DNA of 64,000 nucleotides from a virus (Duplodnaviria; Caudoviricetes). This document shows, in pieces, positions 21,522-64,000 of this stretch. The translations under genes and the position numbers were made by a program. Numbering within the stretch: the stretch's first letter is position 1; the number at the start of each line of letters is the position of its first letter. The stretch lies in IMG/VR virus record IMGVR_UViG_3300028886_000058, positions 60,602 to 124,601 of that record; one strand, written 5' to 3'. The notes under the pieces were generated by a model. It did no database searches, was not told the DNA's origin, and saw only the letters and a program-made list of their open reading frames with translations.

Positions 21522-21561
21522 TTTGATTTAGCACGGTAAGTTGTCTTTTTATGGTACCTTT

Positions 21562-21601
21562 CCTTTATATTTATTTTCGAAAGGCTTCAAAATTAGGCAC
21601 C
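21562..21601 (-). promoter_or_regulatory. Candidate phage promoter, class B, upstream of the homing endonuclease
   Basis: GGTGCCTAATTTTGAAGCCTTTCGAAAATAAATATAAAGG matches the copy at 49822-49861 at 34/40 positions. Confidence 0.6.
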
Positions 21602-21671
21602 TAACTAAAAAGAGTTTCTCCGTTTAGAGAGCTTTATCGATATGCGTTACCGCATAAAGGGACACAATTTT

Positions 21672-36897: not shown

Positions 36898-37099
36898 AAG
36901 AAACTTTAATTAAATAAAACAACAGCCAGTCCTGAGCATGACGTTAAACTGCTCATTAACTTTGAAATTTCGAGCTTTATGCTCTTGATATAAATTGCGA
37001 AGCTGCTGTCGCGTAGAGTTCAGCAGTCGGTTAAAGCTCCGTTAAAAGCTCTTTTTGTTTACCAAAAAAGATGAGGCAAAGCCTCGAAAGGAGAACACT

Positions 37100-39493
37100 A
37101 TGAATACTATTTATAAGCTTAACCTGGCAGAAAACAAGATGGAGGAGATCACCATGTTTGACTCCCCTCTGACCCGCAAACTCAAGAAGATGGGCGTCGA
37201 TCCCAAAGACGCCATAATAAAAGTTTGCGCTGAATGCGCAAAAGAGGAAAACGCAGAAGCCATGATCCGTAACACTCTTACGGACATGTTGGCATCTCAA
37301 TTTATGGTGAACGGAAGCAACTACAAGCCGTTTATGGCTGGTGCTTCCGATGCTCGCAAAGCAACTTCTTCATGGGTGATGGAAGATATTCTTGCCGATC
37401 TCGGAAGATGGGCGATGTGCGGTCTTCGCACAAAGTATATGAAGTTAGCCATAAACAAATATATGGCATATATTGGACTGTTGTCTTCGGCCTCGAAGCC
37501 CTGGTCCGAGGTATTCGGCACGAAGATTGATGTTCGCCGTGTTGCGTTCATCAAAGATGCCGAAGTAGAAGTTACGTCCAATGTCGATCTCCAGACAATG
37601 ACCGACACAACACAAAATGTTAAACGCACCATCAAGATTAACGCGTTTGACGGCTGTGGTATTCACAGAGGTGAACTTTCCAACTGGGAAGCTTGCACAG
37701 GCAGAGATGCCTGGTGGAAGTTCCTGTCCATTCCTGTTGACTTCAATAAGCTCAACGGGAAAACGTTCGTTGACTTCTGGGGAAATACTGTGCGTATTGA
37801 AGATGTGGACATGATCCTTACTGAGTCCTGCTTCAAAACGATCAAACTCTACGAGAGCTACGAGCAGTATTGCGCGGCTCACGAAGAACTGGATCACGAA
37901 GTCTGCGTGTGTGTAAAAGAACACGCTCCGCATCTGAAGGGTATGCCCTATCAACAGGGGCAGACCCTCATGGGAACCGAAGACGACGCGACCGCTTTCA
38001 TGCAGCACGCAAAGAAAACGGTTTATAAGTACAGCGATCCTAAGGAAGCAGCATCTCTGCTGTACGGCTCTCATCGTCAAGCAGCGAAGATGTATCCGGC
38101 GATGTTGAACGAAGGATACACCAAGCGCACTATTCAGGAGAAATATACCACTAAGCGAAACGATATGCTCGGTGGACGTATTCCTGAATTGGGATACAAC
38201 GCATTCTTAGCGCCTGACCTTGTAGCATTTGAAGAGCATCTCTTTGGACGTCCGATCAAGGGCTTCCTCAAAGCAGGTGAATGCTTCTGCGCTGCAGCAA
38301 AGCCTGGTCGTGTTGATATCACTAGGAATCCCCATCTTGACAACGCACACGTTGTGCTGAACAACGTGAAGTTCATGCCTCTGGCTAAAGGTCCTACGAT
38401 GTATATAAACATCTGGGACATGACAACTATTCAGCTTCGTGCTGATTATGACGGAGACCATGTGTGGTATTCTCAGGATTCACACCTGTTGGATCTTGTA
38501 AACCGGACTTACGAAGCTCTTAAGAATATCCCTGTTGACTGGGATGTTGATAAGGCTCCAAAGTCTGACATCAACACCGTAACCATCGCTGCGTTTATCA
38601 CTAATCTGATCCATGGCTCAGAGATCGGTCTGTATGCCGACGCTCTTACGAAGATGTGGAACACAAAGTATAACCGTGATGTTTGCGATTGGCTGACTTA
38701 TGCAGCCAACGTGTTGATCGATGCGGCAAAACATGCAGCCGTCAAGATCAAGAAGCCTGATGCCGTAAAAGCTCTTAACATGATGTCTCTGCCGCTCTTC
38801 GCGATGTATGCGAAAGCTGACGCCGACCGCCCTGTTAATAGCGATTATTGGCTCAAGGAGCGCACCACCAAGTCTGGCATGACTCTGCCTCCGCGGTGCA
38901 AGTACTCCGGATCTTTCCTGGATATGTATTCCAAGAAGATCAAGGAAAACATTCCTGAAGTTATCGAAGTGAAGGGAATTGAAGAGGACATCTTCAATCC
39001 TTGCACGATGATGATTGATCCGCATCGAAAGATCGGAAACTTTACTGGTTTGTCCAAGAAAGGCATCTACGACCCTGAAACAAACACATTCAAAGAATGT
39101 GGAAAATTCCAGGAGATCGCATTCCGTCACAGTACGGAATGGAACAAGTTGGTCGGAGACGCGTCCTTCTTCCGCAATCGTCGTGAGTGGGAAGAAGAAA
39201 CTGGTCGTGCTGCTCGTAAAGAGCTCCTCGACTGGGGTTACGCTCAGTATCCTGAAGTCCAGCGCTCTGAAGAGATGGATAAGCGTATCGATGACGCTCT
39301 GTTCGACATCGTTACTCGTAACATCTTTAATACGAGAATGTCCGACGGAATGGACACCGTTATTAAGCAGGCCTATTGGAGAATCTATGGTGATAAGGCC
39401 GTGGATACTCTGAAGACCAATCTGAACGCTTCTATCCCGGACTTTGAAGGCGAAGACTGGGATGAACTGTTCGACACTGACGACATGGATTAA
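37100..39493 (+). CDS. YonO-like single-subunit double-psi-beta-barrel RNA polymerase
   Basis: Motifs FDGCG, RNPHL, catalytic ADYDGD (38441-38458) and LIDAAKH. About 800 aa, like SPbeta YonO. ATG at 37100 after AAGGAG. Confidence 0.85.
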   Translation: MNTIYKLNLAENKMEEITMFDSPLTRKLKKMGVDPKDAIIKVCAECAKEENAEAMIRNTLTDMLASQFMVNGSNYKPFMAGASDARKATSSWVMEDILADLGRWAMCGLRTKYMKLAINKYMAYIGLLSSASKPWSEVFGTKIDVRRVAFIKDAEVEVTSNVDLQTMTDTTQNVKRTIKINAFDGCGIHRGELSNWEACTGRDAWWKFLSIPVDFNKLNGKTFVDFWGNTVRIEDVDMILTESCFKTIKLYESYEQYCAAHEELDHEVCVCVKEHAPHLKGMPYQQGQTLMGTEDDATAFMQHAKKTVYKYSDPKEAASLLYGSHRQAAKMYPAMLNEGYTKRTIQEKYTTKRNDMLGGRIPELGYNAFLAPDLVAFEEHLFGRPIKGFLKAGECFCAAAKPGRVDITRNPHLDNAHVVLNNVKFMPLAKGPTMYINIWDMTTIQLRADYDGDHVWYSQDSHLLDLVNRTYEALKNIPVDWDVDKAPKSDINTVTIAAFITNLIHGSEIGLYADALTKMWNTKYNRDVCDWLTYAANVLIDAAKHAAVKIKKPDAVKALNMMSLPLFAMYAKADADRPVNSDYWLKERTTKSGMTLPPRCKYSGSFLDMYSKKIKENIPEVIEVKGIEEDIFNPCTMMIDPHRKIGNFTGLSKKGIYDPETNTFKECGKFQEIAFRHSTEWNKLVGDASFFRNRREWEEETGRAARKELLDWGYAQYPEVQRSEEMDKRIDDALFDIVTRNIFNTRMSDGMDTVIKQAYWRIYGDKAVDTLKTNLNASIPDFEGEDWDELFDTDDMD

Positions 39494-42082: not shown

Positions 42083-42157
42083 GTTTTTACGGGGCTGTTT
42101 TTTTCGGGCACCCGCTTTTTCCCCACGGCGCACTTTTACCCACGGGGCGACTGCTTC

Positions 42158-42197
42158 GGTACCGAACAATAAAGCACTTCGAAAAACACTATAAAGG
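42158..42197 (+). promoter_or_regulatory. Candidate class B promoter
   Basis: GGTACCGAACAATAAAGCACTTCGAAAAACACTATAAAGG aligns without gaps to the 49822 and 21562 copies. Confidence 0.6.
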
Positions 42198-42335
42198 AAA
42201 CACCCTATTGCATGCCCTATTTCTGTATGTCAGGACGACATGCTTTTTTTGAACGACTATTTATTCACCCGTGAATCTGGATATCGACGTGACCCTTGAT
42301 CTTTGAGGGTGACATTTAATAAAGGAGGCCTATTT

Positions 42336-49813: not shown

Positions 49814-49821
49814 ATTAATTC

Positions 49822-49861
49822 GGTACCGAAATTTGAAGCCTTTCGAAAATTAGTATAAGGG
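49822..49861 (+). promoter_or_regulatory. Candidate class B promoter upstream of the tRNA/HNH/RAMP region
   Basis: GGTACCGAAATTTGAAGCCTTTCGAAAATTAGTATAAGGG. Confidence 0.6.
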
Positions 49862-58433: not shown

Positions 58434-58875
58434 AGTGCAACAATAACTTTAGGAGTAAAAAACGATGGACGAGAAAAAAGCCAGTTTGCTGACAAATCCA
58501 TATGGAGAGACAAAAAGCGAGTTTATTGAAAAGTATAAGAGCATTGAAAACATTGCCGAAATTTGCTGGTACTTTGGAGTAAGGCCGGAGAAATTACAGG
58601 ATGAACTGAAGATATTACTTAAAGACAGCGTAAATGAAATGAATAAATAAAACGCTAATGGGGTGATGAAATGGCAGACACAATAACTGTAATGTCATGG
58701 CTTGAAGGTTTGGCACAGGACGATTGGAGGATGTTCCACTCTGACAGCGAGGTGCAAGAGATCGCACGGTCTGCCATTAAACTGCTGAAAGAGCAGACAG
58801 ACGAGATTAAAGAACTGCGGTCAATAGTTGAGTTTTGGAAAGAGAAAGCATTACGCACTTAAAGGAGAAAACAAA

Positions 58876-59355
58876 ATGATTAAAGTAAAACAGCATACTG
58901 AAGGGGACAGTAGAGTATCAAAAACAATACCAACTTTTCGTGATTTTCATACGGCAAATGTTGACCATATTGATGATGTTAAGCATCTATCAGTGTTTTT
59001 TGCCGAAGAGTTGAAAAGAAGAATACTAAGTCATGATTGGACAAAAATAACGGAACCTTACGAAAGTATGTTTTATCGTGATTTATGTGCTGTGCTTGAA
59101 GGACGAATGGATTTTTTTGATGGTGAGTGGTCAAATCTTCATTACAACGAATTGGAAAGACATCACCTTAAAAGACATTGCCCGGAAGACGTAGATATGT
59201 TTGATGTAATAGAAATGCTATGCGATTGTGTAGCTGCTGGCATGGCAAGATCAGGGAATGTGTATGATGTTGATATTCCTGCTGAAGTGCTGACTAAAGC
59301 AGTTGGAAACACAGTAAAAGTCTTGGAATCACAGATTGAAGTAATAGAGAAGTAA
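58876..59355 (+). CDS. HD-superfamily phosphohydrolase-like protein (DUF5662-like)
   Basis: HIDDV...SHDWTK...HY...RHH...EMLCD motifs. Confidence 0.65.
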   Translation: MIKVKQHTEGDSRVSKTIPTFRDFHTANVDHIDDVKHLSVFFAEELKRRILSHDWTKITEPYESMFYRDLCAVLEGRMDFFDGEWSNLHYNELERHHLKRHCPEDVDMFDVIEMLCDCVAAGMARSGNVYDVDIPAEVLTKAVGNTVKVLESQIEVIEK

Positions 59356-59976: not shown

Positions 59977-60047
59977 CGGGATGTGGTGTAGCGGTAGCGC
60001 ACCTGGCTTATATCCAGTAAGTGGGAGTTCGACTCTCTCCATCCCGA
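59977..60047 (+). tRNA. tRNA with TAT anticodon (Ile, reads AUA)
   Basis: CGGGATG/CATCCCG acceptor, CTGG-CTTATAT-CCAG anticodon arm and GGGAG-TTCGACT-CTCTC T arm. Confidence 0.8.
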
Positions 60048-60269
60048 CATCGTTGCTTCGTTCGAATCGAACCGGGACTACTTTCGCCGTCGCAAGCTCC
60101 GGCGATACCGAGAAAACGCGCTATCTTGCGCTACGCATTTTCAACTTTCCGCTTATCCATATTGGGTAAGCTTTATGCGCTTGCGTGTAAGCATTAATAT
60201 CAAGCTCACCACTTGATGGCGTAAAGATCATCATCTAAAGAAAAAATGATTAAGGAGTGTGATTAAAAG

Positions 60270-60878
60270 ATGATCAAGGTGTTTATGACTACTACTGCTG
60301 GACGGAAGAGCGATCTTTTCGATGAGGGAACTACTATTCGTGAGATCTTCGACCATTTCGATGTTGACTATTCTGTTGCGACAAATTGTATCGATGGTAC
60401 CAAGATCGATCCCGCTGGGATGAATAAGACCCTTCGTGAGTGGGGCGTTGACAAGGAATGCCGTCTGTCTTCCATCGTTAAGATTGATAACGCGGCCCAT
60501 GTCGACATTTCTGGCGCTTCTGCTGTTCTTGTTTCCGATGTAAAGCTGGAAGACTGGAAGCGTGTAGAAAAGTTTGCTCCGGAAATTCTTAAAATTGTCG
60601 ACGAAGACGATGATCCTCTGTTCCTGGTGAAAACTTGCTGTGGTGGTGGGTCAATTAATAAGTATGGCGTATGCTTTGGCGCTCATACAAACGAGGGTGG
60701 ACTTGCAACTGTGACTGTTCTTCTGGACGAAGAAGTAGAAGACAAGCTTGAGGCTGTCAAAGAGATTATGGGTTCTGCTCTGCTTGATCTGAACAGCATT
60801 GAAAAGGAAATTCCTGATGTGCTGAAGGAGATTGCAGATAAGGAAGCGGAGATCGAAAAGCTGATTATTGCTAAGTGA
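60270..60878 (+). CDS. Ubiquitin-like (beta-grasp) protein with a C-terminal extension
   Basis: Residues 1-75 show a beta-grasp pattern (IKVFMTT...TTIREIF...IDG...KTLREWGV...RLSSIVKIDNA); context next to E2/JAB/E1. Confidence 0.7.
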   Translation: MIKVFMTTTAGRKSDLFDEGTTIREIFDHFDVDYSVATNCIDGTKIDPAGMNKTLREWGVDKECRLSSIVKIDNAAHVDISGASAVLVSDVKLEDWKRVEKFAPEILKIVDEDDDPLFLVKTCCGGGSINKYGVCFGAHTNEGGLATVTVLLDEEVEDKLEAVKEIMGSALLDLNSIEKEIPDVLKEIADKEAEIEKLIIAK

Positions 60879-60887
60879 TCTCCATAC

Positions 60888-60917
60888 GGGGCTGGGTGAA
60901 ATATCCCAGCCCCTTTT
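60888..60917 (+). terminator. Terminator-like hairpin after the Ubl gene
   Basis: GGGGCTGGG/CCCAGCCCC followed by TTTT. Confidence 0.7.
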
Positions 60918-60944
60918 ATAACAGAAAAGGAGATTGCAAAAGAA

Positions 60945-62390
60945 ATGTTTAGAGAGTATATAAACAATCCAATTGATCCCATCCCTGTAGAATATGTTAA
61001 TAAACTTAAAAGAATTTCAAATGAACCAGACTATTCACTAACTTGTCTTGGTATTGCGCTGTTAAAGCATAGAATTGAAGATTATCAAGGTATCGATGGA
61101 GTATATAATTCTTTTACAACAGAAAGAGACTGTGTAGCAAACTTCATTGAAGACTATAAAGATGTAGATAGTTATCCGCGATTCTGTTATTATGCATATT
61201 CAGTAAAAAGTGATGATAATGAAATTAAAACAAAGTTAACAGAACACGGTTTTGAAATTAAGGAGAGCATTGGGGCTCTTCTTAAAGATAAAGCAGATAC
61301 AAAATGTATTGCCGCATATCATAAAACAATGAATTGCGCTGCAATATTCATTAACTCAAAAGATATTCGGTTTTATCATATGTTGATTTCTTTCCTTTCG
61401 TTGCTGTTTCCAAATCTGTTTGCAGAAAAGCCTTTGGAAGAAAGAGATTATAATATTATCAAAGCCCTATCTAAAACCAGTAAAAATGCATTTACAGATA
61501 AAATTCGTGAAGCAGTAGAACCGTATGCAATGGAATTTAGACGGATGATGCTTTGCAGCTTAATGAAAAGAATGCATGAAGTTAAAATTGTTCGGGCACA
61601 AGGCGATGTAGATAGTCAACGCAATGTTGTTAGAGATCTGTCTAATAGATATGCCCAGGCAATGAAACAATTAAAAGATCTTATTGTTATCTTTGAGGGA
61701 ATGAAAGCTACTGAATCGTATGATCAGGCCGAAGAAGATCTTGTAGAATATCTTGCAACAAATAAGCTGATTCATAATTTGAACATTGATAACAATAAGC
61801 TTACGTTTACTGTAGCAACGTTGCTCAATAATTATAACGAAAATGCATGGAGCACATTCGATGATCGTGGATATATTTACGACGGAAATTACACGAATGA
61901 CGGAAGACACACAATTAATTTGCTTGATGTCTTCAAGAAAAGAGAGAATAGAAAGATTCTTCTTAATAATATTTTCTCTGCTGCTCCTGAATTTGTTGTT
62001 AAAATTGCCGGAAATTATTGTCTAAACTTTGAAGAATGCAGAATTACAACCAATAGAAACTTTGATTATAACCTTGCTGATCCTCTCTATCACTCTTATA
62101 TGCCTAATCCGCATTTAAAGATCTTTGGATGTCTTGGAGGATATGAAACAAGAGTAAACAAGGCACTGCAAGAAAGAAACTATATTGGAGCAATAGAAAT
62201 GTGTTGTGCTTCTGCTGGATCTGTTGACCTTGATGAAACGGAACAGACTTTTAGACCGTTTATTGGATGGCTTATGAGTAGCCGTGAAAAGGTTTTGAAG
62301 CGCAAGGACGGCAATGACATGACTCCAGAAGAAGCATTGCTTTATCTTATCGATAAGGAGAAAACAAATGAGACCGATACGAATGACTAA
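60945..62390 (+). CDS. Large protein with a coiled coil and a C-terminal prokaryotic E2-like domain
   Basis: PNPHLKIFGCLGGY resembles the HP(H/N)...CLG active site of prokaryotic E2 families; located between Ubl and JAB. Confidence 0.6.
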   Translation: MFREYINNPIDPIPVEYVNKLKRISNEPDYSLTCLGIALLKHRIEDYQGIDGVYNSFTTERDCVANFIEDYKDVDSYPRFCYYAYSVKSDDNEIKTKLTEHGFEIKESIGALLKDKADTKCIAAYHKTMNCAAIFINSKDIRFYHMLISFLSLLFPNLFAEKPLEERDYNIIKALSKTSKNAFTDKIREAVEPYAMEFRRMMLCSLMKRMHEVKIVRAQGDVDSQRNVVRDLSNRYAQAMKQLKDLIVIFEGMKATESYDQAEEDLVEYLATNKLIHNLNIDNNKLTFTVATLLNNYNENAWSTFDDRGYIYDGNYTNDGRHTINLLDVFKKRENRKILLNNIFSAAPEFVVKIAGNYCLNFEECRITTNRNFDYNLADPLYHSYMPNPHLKIFGCLGGYETRVNKALQERNYIGAIEMCCASAGSVDLDETEQTFRPFIGWLMSSREKVLKRKDGNDMTPEEALLYLIDKEKTNETDTND

Positions 62391-63141
62391 AGAAGCAGAA
62401 GAAAAAATGCTTAAACTTTTCTTTGAAAAGTTCCAGAAAGAATGGAAAACCTTTAAGGAGAACGTAAACGATAAAAAGTTTACGTTCTCAGTCGACTTTT
62501 CAGAGCCAATAAAAGACAAGATTGAAATTATGTTTACTCCACAGGCGTTCCTTAGGATGCGTGCTCTTGTCGAATATTATGGCACTGAAGTTGGATGGTA
62601 TGGTTTAGTAGAAAAGCTTGATAATATGTTGTATCGAGTATACGACGTTAAGATTTGCAAACAATATGTAAATGGATCTAAAGTTGATACGGAAGATGAA
62701 GATACTCTTGAATTCTTTAATAGTCTGACTAACGAAGAAGCGGAGCATATGCATTTTCAGGCTCATTCGCATGTAAAGATGAGCACAGAAGCATCAGGCG
62801 TAGATCTTCAGAATCAGTTGGATGTTGTTCGTAACATGGGGAAAGAAGGATTTTATATCTTCCAGATTTGGAATAAGAATGAAGATATAAATACTTATTT
62901 GTATGATCTTGATAACAACATGTTTTACGATAAAAAGGATGTTATTATTACAATTGAAGACGAAGATCAGACAATAGCAGACTGGGTAGCAGATACTAAA
63001 AAGTTAGTACAGGAAAAGAAAGTGAAGACGTATTATCCTGCTCAGTACTATGGCAAAGGAAATGAGCCAAAGAAAGATCCTGTATATCTGCAAGATGGAT
63101 ATTGGGATGGCACTAATTATGATCAGAGGTGGGATTGGTGA
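62368..63141 (+). CDS. JAB/MPN metallopeptidase
   Basis: TEVGW glutamate and HSHVKMSTEASGVD (HxH-x7-S-x2-D). Confidence 0.85.
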   Translation: MRPIRMTKEAEEKMLKLFFEKFQKEWKTFKENVNDKKFTFSVDFSEPIKDKIEIMFTPQAFLRMRALVEYYGTEVGWYGLVEKLDNMLYRVYDVKICKQYVNGSKVDTEDEDTLEFFNSLTNEEAEHMHFQAHSHVKMSTEASGVDLQNQLDVVRNMGKEGFYIFQIWNKNEDINTYLYDLDNNMFYDKKDVIITIEDEDQTIADWVADTKKLVQEKKVKTYYPAQYYGKGNEPKKDPVYLQDGYWDGTNYDQRWDW

Positions 63142-63809
63142 ACTTAGCAAAAAGTTCTGAATTTTTTGATCCACAGTCCTGTAAAGAAGCAATTCACGTA
63201 ATAGGATGTGGTTCTGTAGGATCTTGTGTGTGCGAGCTGCTTGCACGATTTGGACTAACAAATGTAAGTTTGTACGATTTTGACACCGTAGAAGAACATA
63301 ATCTTGCTAATCAGAATTTTACAACAGAAGATCTTTATAAACCAAAGCTTGAAGGTGTTTACAGCAGGTGGGTTAAAATCAATCCTGAAGCTACAAAAGA
63401 AATTAAACTGTATCCTGACGGATGGAATGGACAGAAACTTTCCGGATATGTGTTTCTTTGTGTAGATAACATTGATTTACGGAGAAAGATTGTTGAAGAT
63501 AATAAATACAATATGAACATTAAAGCAATGTTCGACTTCAGAACGGCTTTGACGTCTGCTCAGCACTATGCTGCCGACTGGTCTGACGATGATAGTATTA
63601 ATTATCTTCTTGATCAAATGGACTTTTCTCACGAAGAAGCTGAAAAGAACGTCCCAGTAAGTGCTTGCAAAGTATCTCTTTGTGTAATGCCTACTGTTTG
63701 GAGTGTAAGCATGGCTGGAGTAATAAACTTTGTAAACTTTGTTAAAACTGGAACACTGGAGAAAGCAATGATTCTAAAGCCGTTTGATTTTGAAACTTTG
63801 GTTCTTTGA
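63129..63809 (+). CDS. ThiF/E1-like adenylyltransferase
   Basis: IGCGSVGS, DFDTVEEHNLANQ, KPK, CVDNIDLR and a C-terminal SAC cysteine. Confidence 0.92.
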   Translation: MGLVNLAKSSEFFDPQSCKEAIHVIGCGSVGSCVCELLARFGLTNVSLYDFDTVEEHNLANQNFTTEDLYKPKLEGVYSRWVKINPEATKEIKLYPDGWNGQKLSGYVFLCVDNIDLRRKIVEDNKYNMNIKAMFDFRTALTSAQHYAADWSDDDSINYLLDQMDFSHEEAEKNVPVSACKVSLCVMPTVWSVSMAGVINFVNFVKTGTLEKAMILKPFDFETLVL

Positions 63810-64000
63810 CGCGTAAAGTAGTTCAACATCACAAATGTTGATCAATTTATGTCATAAATTGAATAATTTTGCTCGACGAATAGACGACGCCTCCAGAGCC
63901 CTGCAGCTGAGCGGAGAACCGTCGCTGGTTATAACGAAACTCAAATATAACCTAATAATACACATAAATAAAAGAAAATTAAAATTCGAGCGATAATAAA

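Follow-up and report, generated by a model that had tools for sequence, protein, structure and literature searches.

A predicted ubiquitin-like protein-tagging cassette beside a retron in a rumen phage

Prokaryotic ubiquitin-like conjugation has been characterised, in the work that we could find, only as a bacterial defence (Bil, type II CBASS) or in operons of unknown role (Bub). We asked whether four adjacent genes of a 125-kb rumen phage (IMG/VR record IMGVR_UViG_3300028886_000058) encode the parts of such a system, how its tag would be processed, and what the system works with. The window, that is the whole stretch of DNA analysed, comprises 64,000 nucleotides (positions 60,602 to 124,601 of the record). 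The original prediction described four co-oriented genes, the last three overlapping, with beta-grasp, PH...CLG, JAMM and ThiF motifs, a ubiquitin-like (Ubl) domain that ends in KIDNA without Gly-Gly and is followed by a domain of about 125 aa, a terminator after the Ubl gene, and an E1 without CxxC sites. All of these observations were confirmed. The features of the locus are as follows.

60270-60494, + strand: ubiquitin-like (beta-grasp) domain, residues 1-75 of a 202-aa protein (ORF 60270-60878), ending ...SSIVKIDNA, with Ala75 as the predicted mature C-terminus.
60495-60878, + strand: domain X, residues 76-202 of the same protein, acidic (pI 4.4).
60888-60919, + strand: intrinsic terminator hairpin plus T-run between the Ubl-X gene and the E2-like gene.
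60945-62390, + strand: E2-like protein of 481 aa, with an N-terminal alpha/beta domain (1-175), a 77-residue helix (180-256) and a UBC/RWD-like domain (258-430).
62368-63141, + strand: JAB/JAMM (MPN+) metallopeptidase of 257 aa, with a variable Tyr/Gly-rich tail that usually ends in D-W.
63129-63809, + strand: minimal E1 (ThiF/MoeB-type adenylation domain) of 223-226 aa.
63810-64000, + strand: 5' part of a retron-type ncRNA; the rest of the ncRNA and the reverse transcriptase (RT) lie across the contig junction, at positions 183-1433 of the contig start (G000:C1).

The last three protein-coding genes overlap by 23 and 13 nt. The true start of the E1 is probably GTG 63138 (MNLAKS..., as in homologues), which gives a GTGA start/stop overlap with the preceding gene. 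The cluster is phage-borne, since the window holds terminase and portal genes and the homologues lie on viral contigs of 100-160 kb. All 18 relatives that cover the region keep this gene order, even where the E2-like protein is only 23-25% identical, and none was found in cellular genomes. Synteny in every related contig examined excludes chance.

We first examined the tag. In the AF2 model of the 202-aa protein (pLDDT 85), residues 1-69 have the order b-b-a-b-a-b, and all 50 top hits of a structure comparison (VIA) are ubiquitin-like folds, among them ubiquitin, SUMO, BilA and MoaD (Z 8.0-9.4, rmsd about 2 A over 66-74 residues). Foldseek gave TM 0.6-0.69 to ubiquitin/SUMO. The tail is predicted to be flexible, with pLDDT below 50 at residues 71-73. 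There is no C-terminal Gly or Gly-Gly: D73, N74, A75 and A76 are invariant in 30 homologues, with one NNAA variant seen. Ubiquitin residue 75 aligns to model residue 74 as the last aligned pair, which would put Gly76 opposite Ala75.

Residues 77-202 form a second domain, for which we found no significant Pfam or PDB sequence match. In two relatives (the locus L013 and MT835544.1) domain X is a separate gene just upstream of the Ubl (HMM E 5e-21), and the Ubl is a free-standing 78-aa protein ending in DNA plus three variable residues (..DNATSK and ..DNALAA). These two natural gene fissions put the predicted processing site at Asp-Asn-Ala75|Ala and back the cut at DNA|A that had originally been proposed.

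We next looked at the spacer behind the tag gene. A 9-bp stem with 8 GC pairs plus TTTTAT lies at 60888-60913. The hairpin is present in the window and in 14 of the 15 related spacers folded, the MT835544.1 spacer having no clean terminator hairpin, and 8 of 10 stem pairs show compensatory changes. It is bracketed by TCTCC (60879-60883), which can pair with the GGAGA of the Shine-Dalgarno sequence of the E2-like gene (60930-60934). The conserved terminator fits an excess of the tag, as had been suggested.

The 257-aa protein carries the E...HxH-x7-S-xx-D motif of JAMM/MPN+ metallopeptidases, with E74, H133-S-H135, S143 and D146 invariant in 13 sequences. Its profile aligns to Rpn11 across the motif at E 0.002, whereas the PADLOC JAB hit is weak (0.0065) and no Pfam JAB model matched at E <= 1. 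The 226-aa protein belongs to the ThiF/MoeB/E1 adenylation superfamily, with a Pfam ThiF (PF00899) score of 67.5 bits against a gathering cut-off of 28.1 (E 1.3e-18), and also scores with NCBIfam ThiF (3.9e-15) and, in its Rossmann region, with PADLOC E1-E2 (Cap2-type) models (4.6e-13). Its GCGSVGS and DN..R motifs are invariant. None of the 13 homologues has the Zn-binding CxxC pairs of ThiF/MoeB, the conserved cysteines being C27, C111 and C180 only. Cys180, invariant in PVSAC, appears to sit where MoeB has its conserved Cys. There is no second adenylation domain and no separate Cys domain.

The identity of the 481-aa protein is less certain. No Pfam, PHROG or PADLOC model recognises it (for Pfam at E <= 1, including the Prok-E2 families), and the only family lead is a language-model similarity of 0.84 to Prok-E2_D clusters. 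In the full-length AF2 model (pLDDT 90.7), residues 258-430 match the RWD domains of Knl1 (Z 7.3) and Listerin (6.8), a SEA-complex chain (8adl_C, 6.8) and Ubc9 (6.2), a modest fold match in a range that is common for this comparison. The order of secondary-structure elements, read from the DSSP string, is a1-b1-b2-[insert]-b3-b4-motif-Cys-a2-a3, which fits UBC topology with one insert. The motif is PNPHLKIFGCLGG (PNPH390...C396-L-G), with N388, H390, C396 and G398 invariant in the alignment, so that the Cys is preceded by PN-x-H and not by the HPN of E2 enzymes. The family comprises 1831 clusters at 50% identity, and PNxH-x5-C-x-G is present in 138 of 144 cluster representatives.

The original prediction did not extend to what follows the E1. 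A 182-bp contig end overlap joins the window end to the contig start, and across this junction the E1 runs directly into a retron-type ncRNA and RT. The ncRNA starts at the first base after the E1 stop (a1 arm CGCGTAAA), with conserved hairpins at about 63822-63862, and no terminator-like site was found between the E1 and the window end. Terminal 8-bp inverted repeats covary in 8 loci. Inverted repeats of 7-11 bp close each unit of ~260-280 nt, starting within 5 nt of the E1 stop in 8 of the 9 loci that show them, and their sequences differ between loci. A conserved internal hairpin has 5 of 9 compensatory pairs. The RT matches Pfam RVT_1 (2.9e-19) and the PADLOC retron RT_II-A model (2.1e-49, over profile positions 13-297 of 304), and all 25 best models are retron RTs. 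The RT follows the E1 in all 18 related loci examined.

Taken together, we interpret the locus, with moderate confidence, as a phage-encoded, thioester-type ubiquitin-like conjugation cassette of five protein modules (Ubl, domain X, E2-like, JAB, minimal E1) that is transcribed together with a retron. The analysis itself establishes the folds and motifs of the Ubl, the JAB and the E1, the domain boundary at DNA|A, the conserved gene order, the conserved terminator after the tag gene, and the retron-type RT and ncRNA that begin directly after the E1, while everything that follows, including cleavage, thioester formation, conjugation and msDNA synthesis, is inferred from sequence and predicted structure. 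In this view, the JAB would cut the Ubl-X precursor, or the 3-residue tail of free-standing Ubls, after Ala75, and the E1, probably a ThiF-like homodimer, would adenylate the Ala75 carboxylate and take it onto Cys180. The Ubl would then pass to Cys396 of the E2-like protein. No E3 is encoded, so the N-terminal domain and long helix of the E2-like protein would choose the target, with the Ubl joined to a lysine, and the JAB may also reverse conjugates. The terminator, together with the masked ribosome-binding site of the E2-like gene, would keep the tag and X in excess over the enzymes. There are precedents for the processing step: BilC trims BilA precursors (10.1101/2023.09.26.559546), and the BubCD JAB domain cuts a Ubl-E2 fusion (PMC11601596). 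In the papers searched, however, we found no characterised protein-conjugating E1 system with a C-terminal alanine.

Since the retron always follows with no gap, we think that the two act as one unit, with the retron RT-msDNA as sensor or regulator and the tagging kit as the output, likely in conflict with other phages or with the host. This link rests on adjacency and a shared transcript layout, and in a conserved phage genome synteny alone can persist without joint function. The interpretation originally offered was partly supported. The cluster is phage-borne, has the parts of a Ubl/E2-like/JAB/E1 system and has a predicted cut at DNA|A, but the E2 assignment rests on the modest fold match, matching topology and an invariant Cys and His, and the idea that the kit tags host proteins or jams host conjugation defences remains a conjecture. 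That reading had also missed that the cassette is a fixed block in this phage lineage rather than a variable accessory gene, and that it runs into a retron, which points to a joint retron-tagging unit rather than a stand-alone counter-defence.

Of the alternatives, that stand-alone counter-defence or host take-over, in which the phage would tag host proteins such as defence factors, or flood or mimic host Bil/CBASS-type conjugation, with a functionally unrelated retron next door, is the least unlikely. The cassette sits among early-type genes on the + strand (tRNAs, small Zn-ribbon proteins, RNA-polymerase-like genes, exonuclease and SSB), the E2-like protein, especially its N-terminal domain and helix, diverges much faster than the E1, as expected for a target-binding part in an arms race, and the E1 scores with Cap2-type models. 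However, counter-defence genes are usually variable, yet this block is fixed in 18 of 18 relatives, and the start of the ncRNA at the first base after the E1 stop in most relatives argues for one unit. We consider it less likely still that the 481-aa protein is a non-catalytic RWD-like scaffold or adaptor and that the E1 alone activates and transfers the Ubl, as in archaeal SAMP/UbaA or Urm1/Uba4. The best fold matches are indeed to non-catalytic RWD domains and no Prok-E2 Pfam model matches, but an invariant Cys with a nearby invariant Asn and His lies between b4 and a2, where E2 enzymes carry their active site, and is kept in outline across the 1831 clusters and in 138 of the 144 representatives examined, whereas non-catalytic RWD/UEV domains typically lack this Cys.

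A role in morphogenesis, in which the JAB would release a Ubl-X precursor needed for virion assembly and E1/E2 would crosslink it to a structural protein of the phage itself, also appears improbable. It is suggested by the layout of the lambda and T1 tail-assembly protein TAPI, a Ubl followed by a small globular C-terminal domain with a JAB in the neighbouring TAPK that is predicted to cut after the Ubl, and by lineage-wide conservation, which fits a core function, but the cassette lies about 27 kb from the structural module on the opposite strand, its JAB has no NlpC/P60 domain, and TAPI has a C-terminal glycine and no E1 or E2. Equally doubtful is a system without protein tagging, in which the Ubl is a sulfur carrier (ThiS/MoaD/TtuB-like thiocarboxylate) or its C-terminus is chemically modified by a ThiF-like enzyme as in MccB-type peptide pathways. 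The E1 is closest in size and sequence to ThiF/MoeB, phage tRNA genes lie next to the cassette, and JAMM enzymes do cut MoaD-MoaE fusions (PMC8832034). Against this, the known sulfur carriers end in Gly-Gly whereas this tag ends in DNA, no rhodanese, cysteine desulfurase or sulfur-acceptor enzyme was detected among the cassette genes and six neighbouring genes scanned, and the conserved E2-like protein with a catalytic-type Cys would have no role.

A bolder possibility, which we hold only tentatively, is that the retron and the tagging kit form one machine, a retron whose output is covalent ubiquitin-like tagging of proteins, carried as a fixed module by a large clade of gut and rumen phages, with a tag activated at a C-terminal alanine. 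This would be a new class of retron effector and, as far as the literature we could search shows, the first complete phage-encoded ubiquitination-like pathway. We found no paper on a phage-encoded system of this kind. A full kit fixed in a large phage clade would show that viruses of bacteria also use protein tagging, as eukaryotic viruses do. The kit has a new E2-like family of more than 1800 clusters at 50% identity, the alanine end would widen what E1 enzymes are known to activate, and the physical coupling to a retron offers a concrete, testable candidate for a new retron effector mechanism.

We finally compared the locus with known systems. As in retrons (see Mestre et al. 2020, PMC7736814), modelled in PADLOC with type labels up to XIII as RT plus msr-msd ncRNA plus effector, the ncRNA lies upstream of a retron-clade RT, is flanked by covarying inverted repeats and shares its transcript layout with accessory genes. 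In contrast, no paper that we could search pairs a retron with a ThiF or ubiquitin-like module, and retron effectors are not known to include a ubiquitin-like kit. The lambda/T1 tail assembly proteins TAPI and TAPK (PMC1779556) are likewise phage-encoded, with a Ubl followed by a small globular C-terminal domain and a JAB predicted to cut between them, but they sit in the tail module, end the Ubl in Gly, have no E1 or E2, and their JAB is fused to NlpC/P60. With type II CBASS Cap2 (E2-E1) and Cap3 (JAB), the cassette shares an E1 Rossmann region that scores with Cap2-type PADLOC and NCBIfam models, a JAB partner and an E1 of the non-canonical, ThiF-like dimer type. Here, however, E2-like and E1 are separate genes with no longer fused forms found, there is no CD-NTase in the block, and the substrate is a true beta-grasp Ubl.

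In Bub (6E/DUF6527) operons (PMC11601596), the Ubl is also made as a fusion with a downstream module from which the operon's own JAB cuts it, and the E1 is a compact adenylation domain without a separate Cys domain. Bub uses Ser/Tyr oxyesters and lacks catalytic cysteines, whereas Cys180 and Cys396 are invariant at the candidate sites here; its fusion partner is the E2 itself rather than domain X, and no DUF6527 protease was detected among the cassette proteins or the six neighbouring proteins scanned against Pfam. Type I/II Bil (BilABCD) anti-phage operons (operon class 6d of Iyer, Burroughs and Aravind 2006; 10.1101/2023.09.26.559546; 10.1101/2023.09.04.556158) have the same gene order of Ubl, E2, JAB and E1, no E3, so that the E2 is thought to pick the target, a JAB that pre-processes a Ubl with extra C-terminal residues, and an E1 and E2 that appear to be cysteine-based. 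Bil is bacterial, while this cassette was found only on phage contigs, and the reactive residue of BilA is a universally conserved Gly where here it is Ala. BilD has inactive and active adenylation domains, a mobile Cys domain and a Zn site, whereas this E1 is a single 226-aa domain without CxxC. The E2-like protein has 481 aa with extra domains and a PNxH...C motif and matches no Prok-E2 Pfam model, and the cassette also has domain X and a retron.

We first examined the genomic setting of the cassette and found that the four ORFs lie exactly where the original prediction had placed them:

60270-60878, + strand, the Ubl-X gene (202 aa)
60945-62390, + strand, the E2-like gene (481 aa)
62368-63141, + strand, the JAB gene (257 aa)
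63129-63809, + strand, the E1 gene

The E2-like/JAB and JAB/E1 pairs overlap. The E1 most likely starts at GTG 63138, as this start gives MNLAKS as in all homologues, a GTGA start/stop overlap and a Shine-Dalgarno sequence at the right distance. A tRNA-Ile with anticodon TAT and a DUF5662 protein (59977-60048 and 58828-59355) lie just upstream of the cassette. The viral record of 124,601 bp (contig G000:C1, of which the window spans 60602-124601) encodes a tailed phage with a large terminase, a portal protein and five tRNA genes. The sequence closes on itself, since its last 182 bp repeat at the contig start (G000:C1:1-182 = 124420-124601, window 63819-64000; 99% identity), which suggests that the record, although listed as linear, is a complete circular or terminally redundant genome.

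We next characterized the tag. An AlphaFold2 model of the 202-aa protein, built from 30 homologues (pLDDT 85), shows a beta-grasp in residues 1-69, a low-confidence stretch at residues 71-73 and a second domain in residues 77-202. All 50 best structural matches are ubiquitin-like folds at Z 8.0-9.4, including SUMO, ubiquitin, MoaD and the bacterial BilA, and a Foldseek search was in agreement. In the ubiquitin row, the last aligned pair is ubiquitin residue 75 with model residue 74, which would put Gly76 opposite Ala75. Sequence searches of the 202-aa protein against Pfam, PHROGs, PADLOC and NCBIfam gave nothing significant.

The tail S-S-I-V-K-x-D-N-A-A is invariant in 30 homologues that are 58-94% identical, with one distant relative carrying N-N-A-A. 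Two relatives provide a natural experiment. In the IMG/VR locus L013 and in the GenBank record MT835544.1 (human faeces), the Ubl is a free-standing ORF of 78 aa ending ...KTDNA-TSK and ...KMDNA-LAA, respectively, and the homologue of residues 76-202, which we call X, is a separate gene immediately upstream (HMM E 5e-21). The constant part therefore stops at Ala75, and what follows varies. This is how Ubl precursors look in Bil, where up to nine non-conserved residues follow the reactive glycine and are removed by BilC (10.1101/2023.09.26.559546). The cut at DNA|A proposed in the original prediction is thus well supported, although the reactive residue would be alanine rather than glycine.

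Domain X is acidic, always present, either fused or separate, and has one invariant lysine (K101 of the full-length protein). For this domain, the Pfam scan gave only non-significant matches (best E 0.036), the profile search of PDB sequences gave only marginal ones and the search of a protein atlas gave no usable hit, while in both structure searches of the full-length model the hit lists were filled by the ubiquitin domain. X could be a cofactor, an adaptor for the long helix of the E2-like protein or the first target.

Turning to the predicted enzymes, the JAB protein carries the complete JAMM motif, with E74, H133-S-H135, S143 and D146 invariant, and a profile of 13 sequences aligns to Rpn11 across the motif at E 0.002. 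The protein ends in a variable Tyr/Gly/Lys-rich tail (window 63010-63141, residues 215-257) that closes with a conserved acidic-aromatic D-W in most relatives and may be a docking peptide. The E1 matches Pfam ThiF at 1.3e-18 and is a single adenylation domain of about 225 aa with no CxxC. Its one invariant cysteine outside the nucleotide-binding region is C180, in P-V-S-A-C-K-V-S-L-C-V-M-P-T-V, which we infer to correspond to the conserved Cys just before the G-V-M-A-P helix of MoeB.

The E2-like protein was recognised by no family library (Pfam, PHROGs, PADLOC or NCBIfam). It defines a very large family, as a profile of its C-terminal half found 1831 clusters at 50% identity, of which 440 score below 1e-30. 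In the model (pLDDT 90.7), residues 258-430 run a1, b1, b2, an insert, b3, b4, the PNPH motif, Cys396, then a2 and a3, which is the UBC order. In an unbiased search of 48,161 chains, the non-coiled-coil matches among the top seven rows were the Knl1 RWD domain (two entries), Listerin RWD (two entries), a SEA-complex chain (8adl_C) and Ubc9, at Z 6.2-7.3. That these all belong to the UBC/RWD fold group is our reading of the entry titles, and since such scores lie in a range regarded as common for this search, we rate the fold as probable, not proven. A Foldseek search of the whole 481-aa model against the PDB gave only noise, re-examination of the Foldseek candidates gave only coiled coils and weak MoaB/MogA-like matches for residues 20-175 (Z <= 5), BFVD returned one uncharacterised phage protein, and a profile of the E2-like protein against PDB sequences gave nothing. 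A search for longer fused forms found none. Residues N388, H390, C396 and G398 are invariant, and the relaxed motif PNxH-x5-C-x-G occurs in 138 of 144 cluster representatives. The N-terminal domain and the 77-residue helix diverge faster than the UBC-like part, and the E2-like protein as a whole diverges faster than E1 (23-57% against 46-83% identity).

The 66-bp spacer after the Ubl-X gene holds a 9-bp GC-rich hairpin followed by TTTTAT. The window and 14 of the 15 related spacers folded have such a hairpin and T-run at the same place, with differing stem sequences, and in an alignment 8 of 10 stem pairs show compensatory changes. In addition, TCTCC directly after the Ubl-X stop codon (window 60879-60883) can pair with the GGAGA ribosome-binding site of the E2-like gene (window 60930-60934), enclosing the terminator. 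This pairing is kept in the window and in its close relatives (the IMG/VR loci L001-L009), with G-U or extended pairs in some, and may couple or limit translation. Both features fit more tag than enzyme, as the original prediction had suggested.

To assess the distribution of the cassette, we examined neighbourhoods in IMG/VR and one GenBank record. These comprised 13 IMG/VR loci found with the E2-like protein, three further loci found with the downstream polymerase-like gene, one locus found with a distant cluster representative, and MT835544.1. Of the three further loci, two cover the cassette region, one only from the JAB gene onward, whereas the third (L023, a 9.4-kb contig) begins inside the RT gene and was left out of the count. 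The order Ubl(-X), E2-like, JAB, E1, reverse transcriptase is kept in all 18 relatives that cover the region, even where the E2-like protein is only 23-25% identical. Two pattern scans of 185,579 species genomes found no relative, which is weak evidence as only a few peptide patterns were searched. Among 50,697 phage records, a DNA search found no match and protein searches found only MT835544.1. The cassette therefore looks like a fixed module of a clade of 100-160 kb gut and rumen phages, not a variable accessory gene. The genome has a tyrosine recombinase outside the window (G000:C1:26490-26942; Pfam Phage_integrase, 52.7 bits), so a temperate or plasmid-like lifestyle is possible but not shown, and no related prophage turned up in the species genomes.

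The conserved synteny drew our attention to the RT, which matches the PADLOC retron model RT_II-A at 2.1e-49 over nearly the whole profile, with all 25 best models being retron RTs. The retron-type ncRNA and RT follow E1 with no gap (window 63810-64000, continuing at G000:C1:183-1433, locus L016). The 299-nt spacer begins at the first base after the E1 stop with CGCGTAAA, and its complement TTTACGCG lies 13 nt before the RT start. Seven relatives have such an arm starting within five bases of the E1 stop, each with a different sequence (TTCATAAA, TACGTAAA, CACTTAAA, CATTTAAA, TGCATAAA and others), while locus L005 has one further in and locus L004 carries two tandem units. Such covarying arms are the a1/a2 signature of retron ncRNAs, and an internal hairpin also covaries. 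The 53-aa ORF at 63835-63996 lies inside this RNA and is probably not a gene. We also considered whether the RT belongs to a diversity-generating retroelement and rejected this, because no template/variable repeat pair exists in the genome. No terminator-like site was found between E1 and the window end. The E1 and the ncRNA therefore appear to share a transcript.

Further elements were observed in the genome. At 1495-1576 and 1779-1861 of L016 (G000:C1), an 82-nt near-perfect palindrome lies just after the RT gene and, beyond it, a tRNA-like gene (Rfam tRNA, 47 bits) lies inside a 100-aa ORF that is therefore doubtful. Two paralogous large proteins (window 37055-39493 and G000:C1:2435-5260; 812 and 941 aa, PHROG 8308) match Pfam RdRP (PF05183) and, by analogy with YonO and crAss-phage polymerases, may be two-barrel phage RNA polymerases. 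The 941-aa gene follows the retron in most relatives whose retrieved sequence reaches that far. A dispersed element of about 50 bp, 78-89% identical between copies, lies upstream of the 941-aa gene (G000:C1:2336-2388) and at four other places (window 21559-21611 on the opposite strand, 42155-42200 and 49815-49861, and G000:C1:18300-18348), and may be a phage promoter or regulatory site.

Taken together, the interpretation given in the original prediction was supported in part. We think that a thioester cascade is most likely, in which the JAB would cut at Ala75, the E1 would adenylate Ala75 and take it onto Cys180, and the Ubl would pass to Cys396 of the E2-like protein, which would select the target without an E3, as proposed for Bil. 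All chemical steps in this scheme are inferred. Because of the retron, we favour a joint unit with the retron as sensor or regulator and tagging as output. The alternatives are the stand-alone counter-defence or host take-over function put forward in the original prediction, an E2-independent system with the 481-aa protein as a scaffold, an assembly role like that of lambda TAPI/TAPK, and a sulfur-carrier or peptide-modification role.

Literature searches found no paper on a complete phage-encoded Ubl/E1/E2/JAB system or on a retron paired with one, although most subscription journals lay outside these searches and this is not proof of absence. If the retron coupling is functional, the cassette may be more than a variation on known ubiquitin-like conjugation systems. 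In its inferred mode of action it works like Bil, but it departs from Bil in the E1 architecture, the E2 family and the C-terminal glycine. It shares the cut-off-the-fusion logic of type I Bub (PMC11601596) but has cysteines where Bub has Ser and Tyr. Finally, it shares the Ubl-plus-domain layout of lambda TAPI (PMC1779556) but adds an E1 and an E2-like protein.
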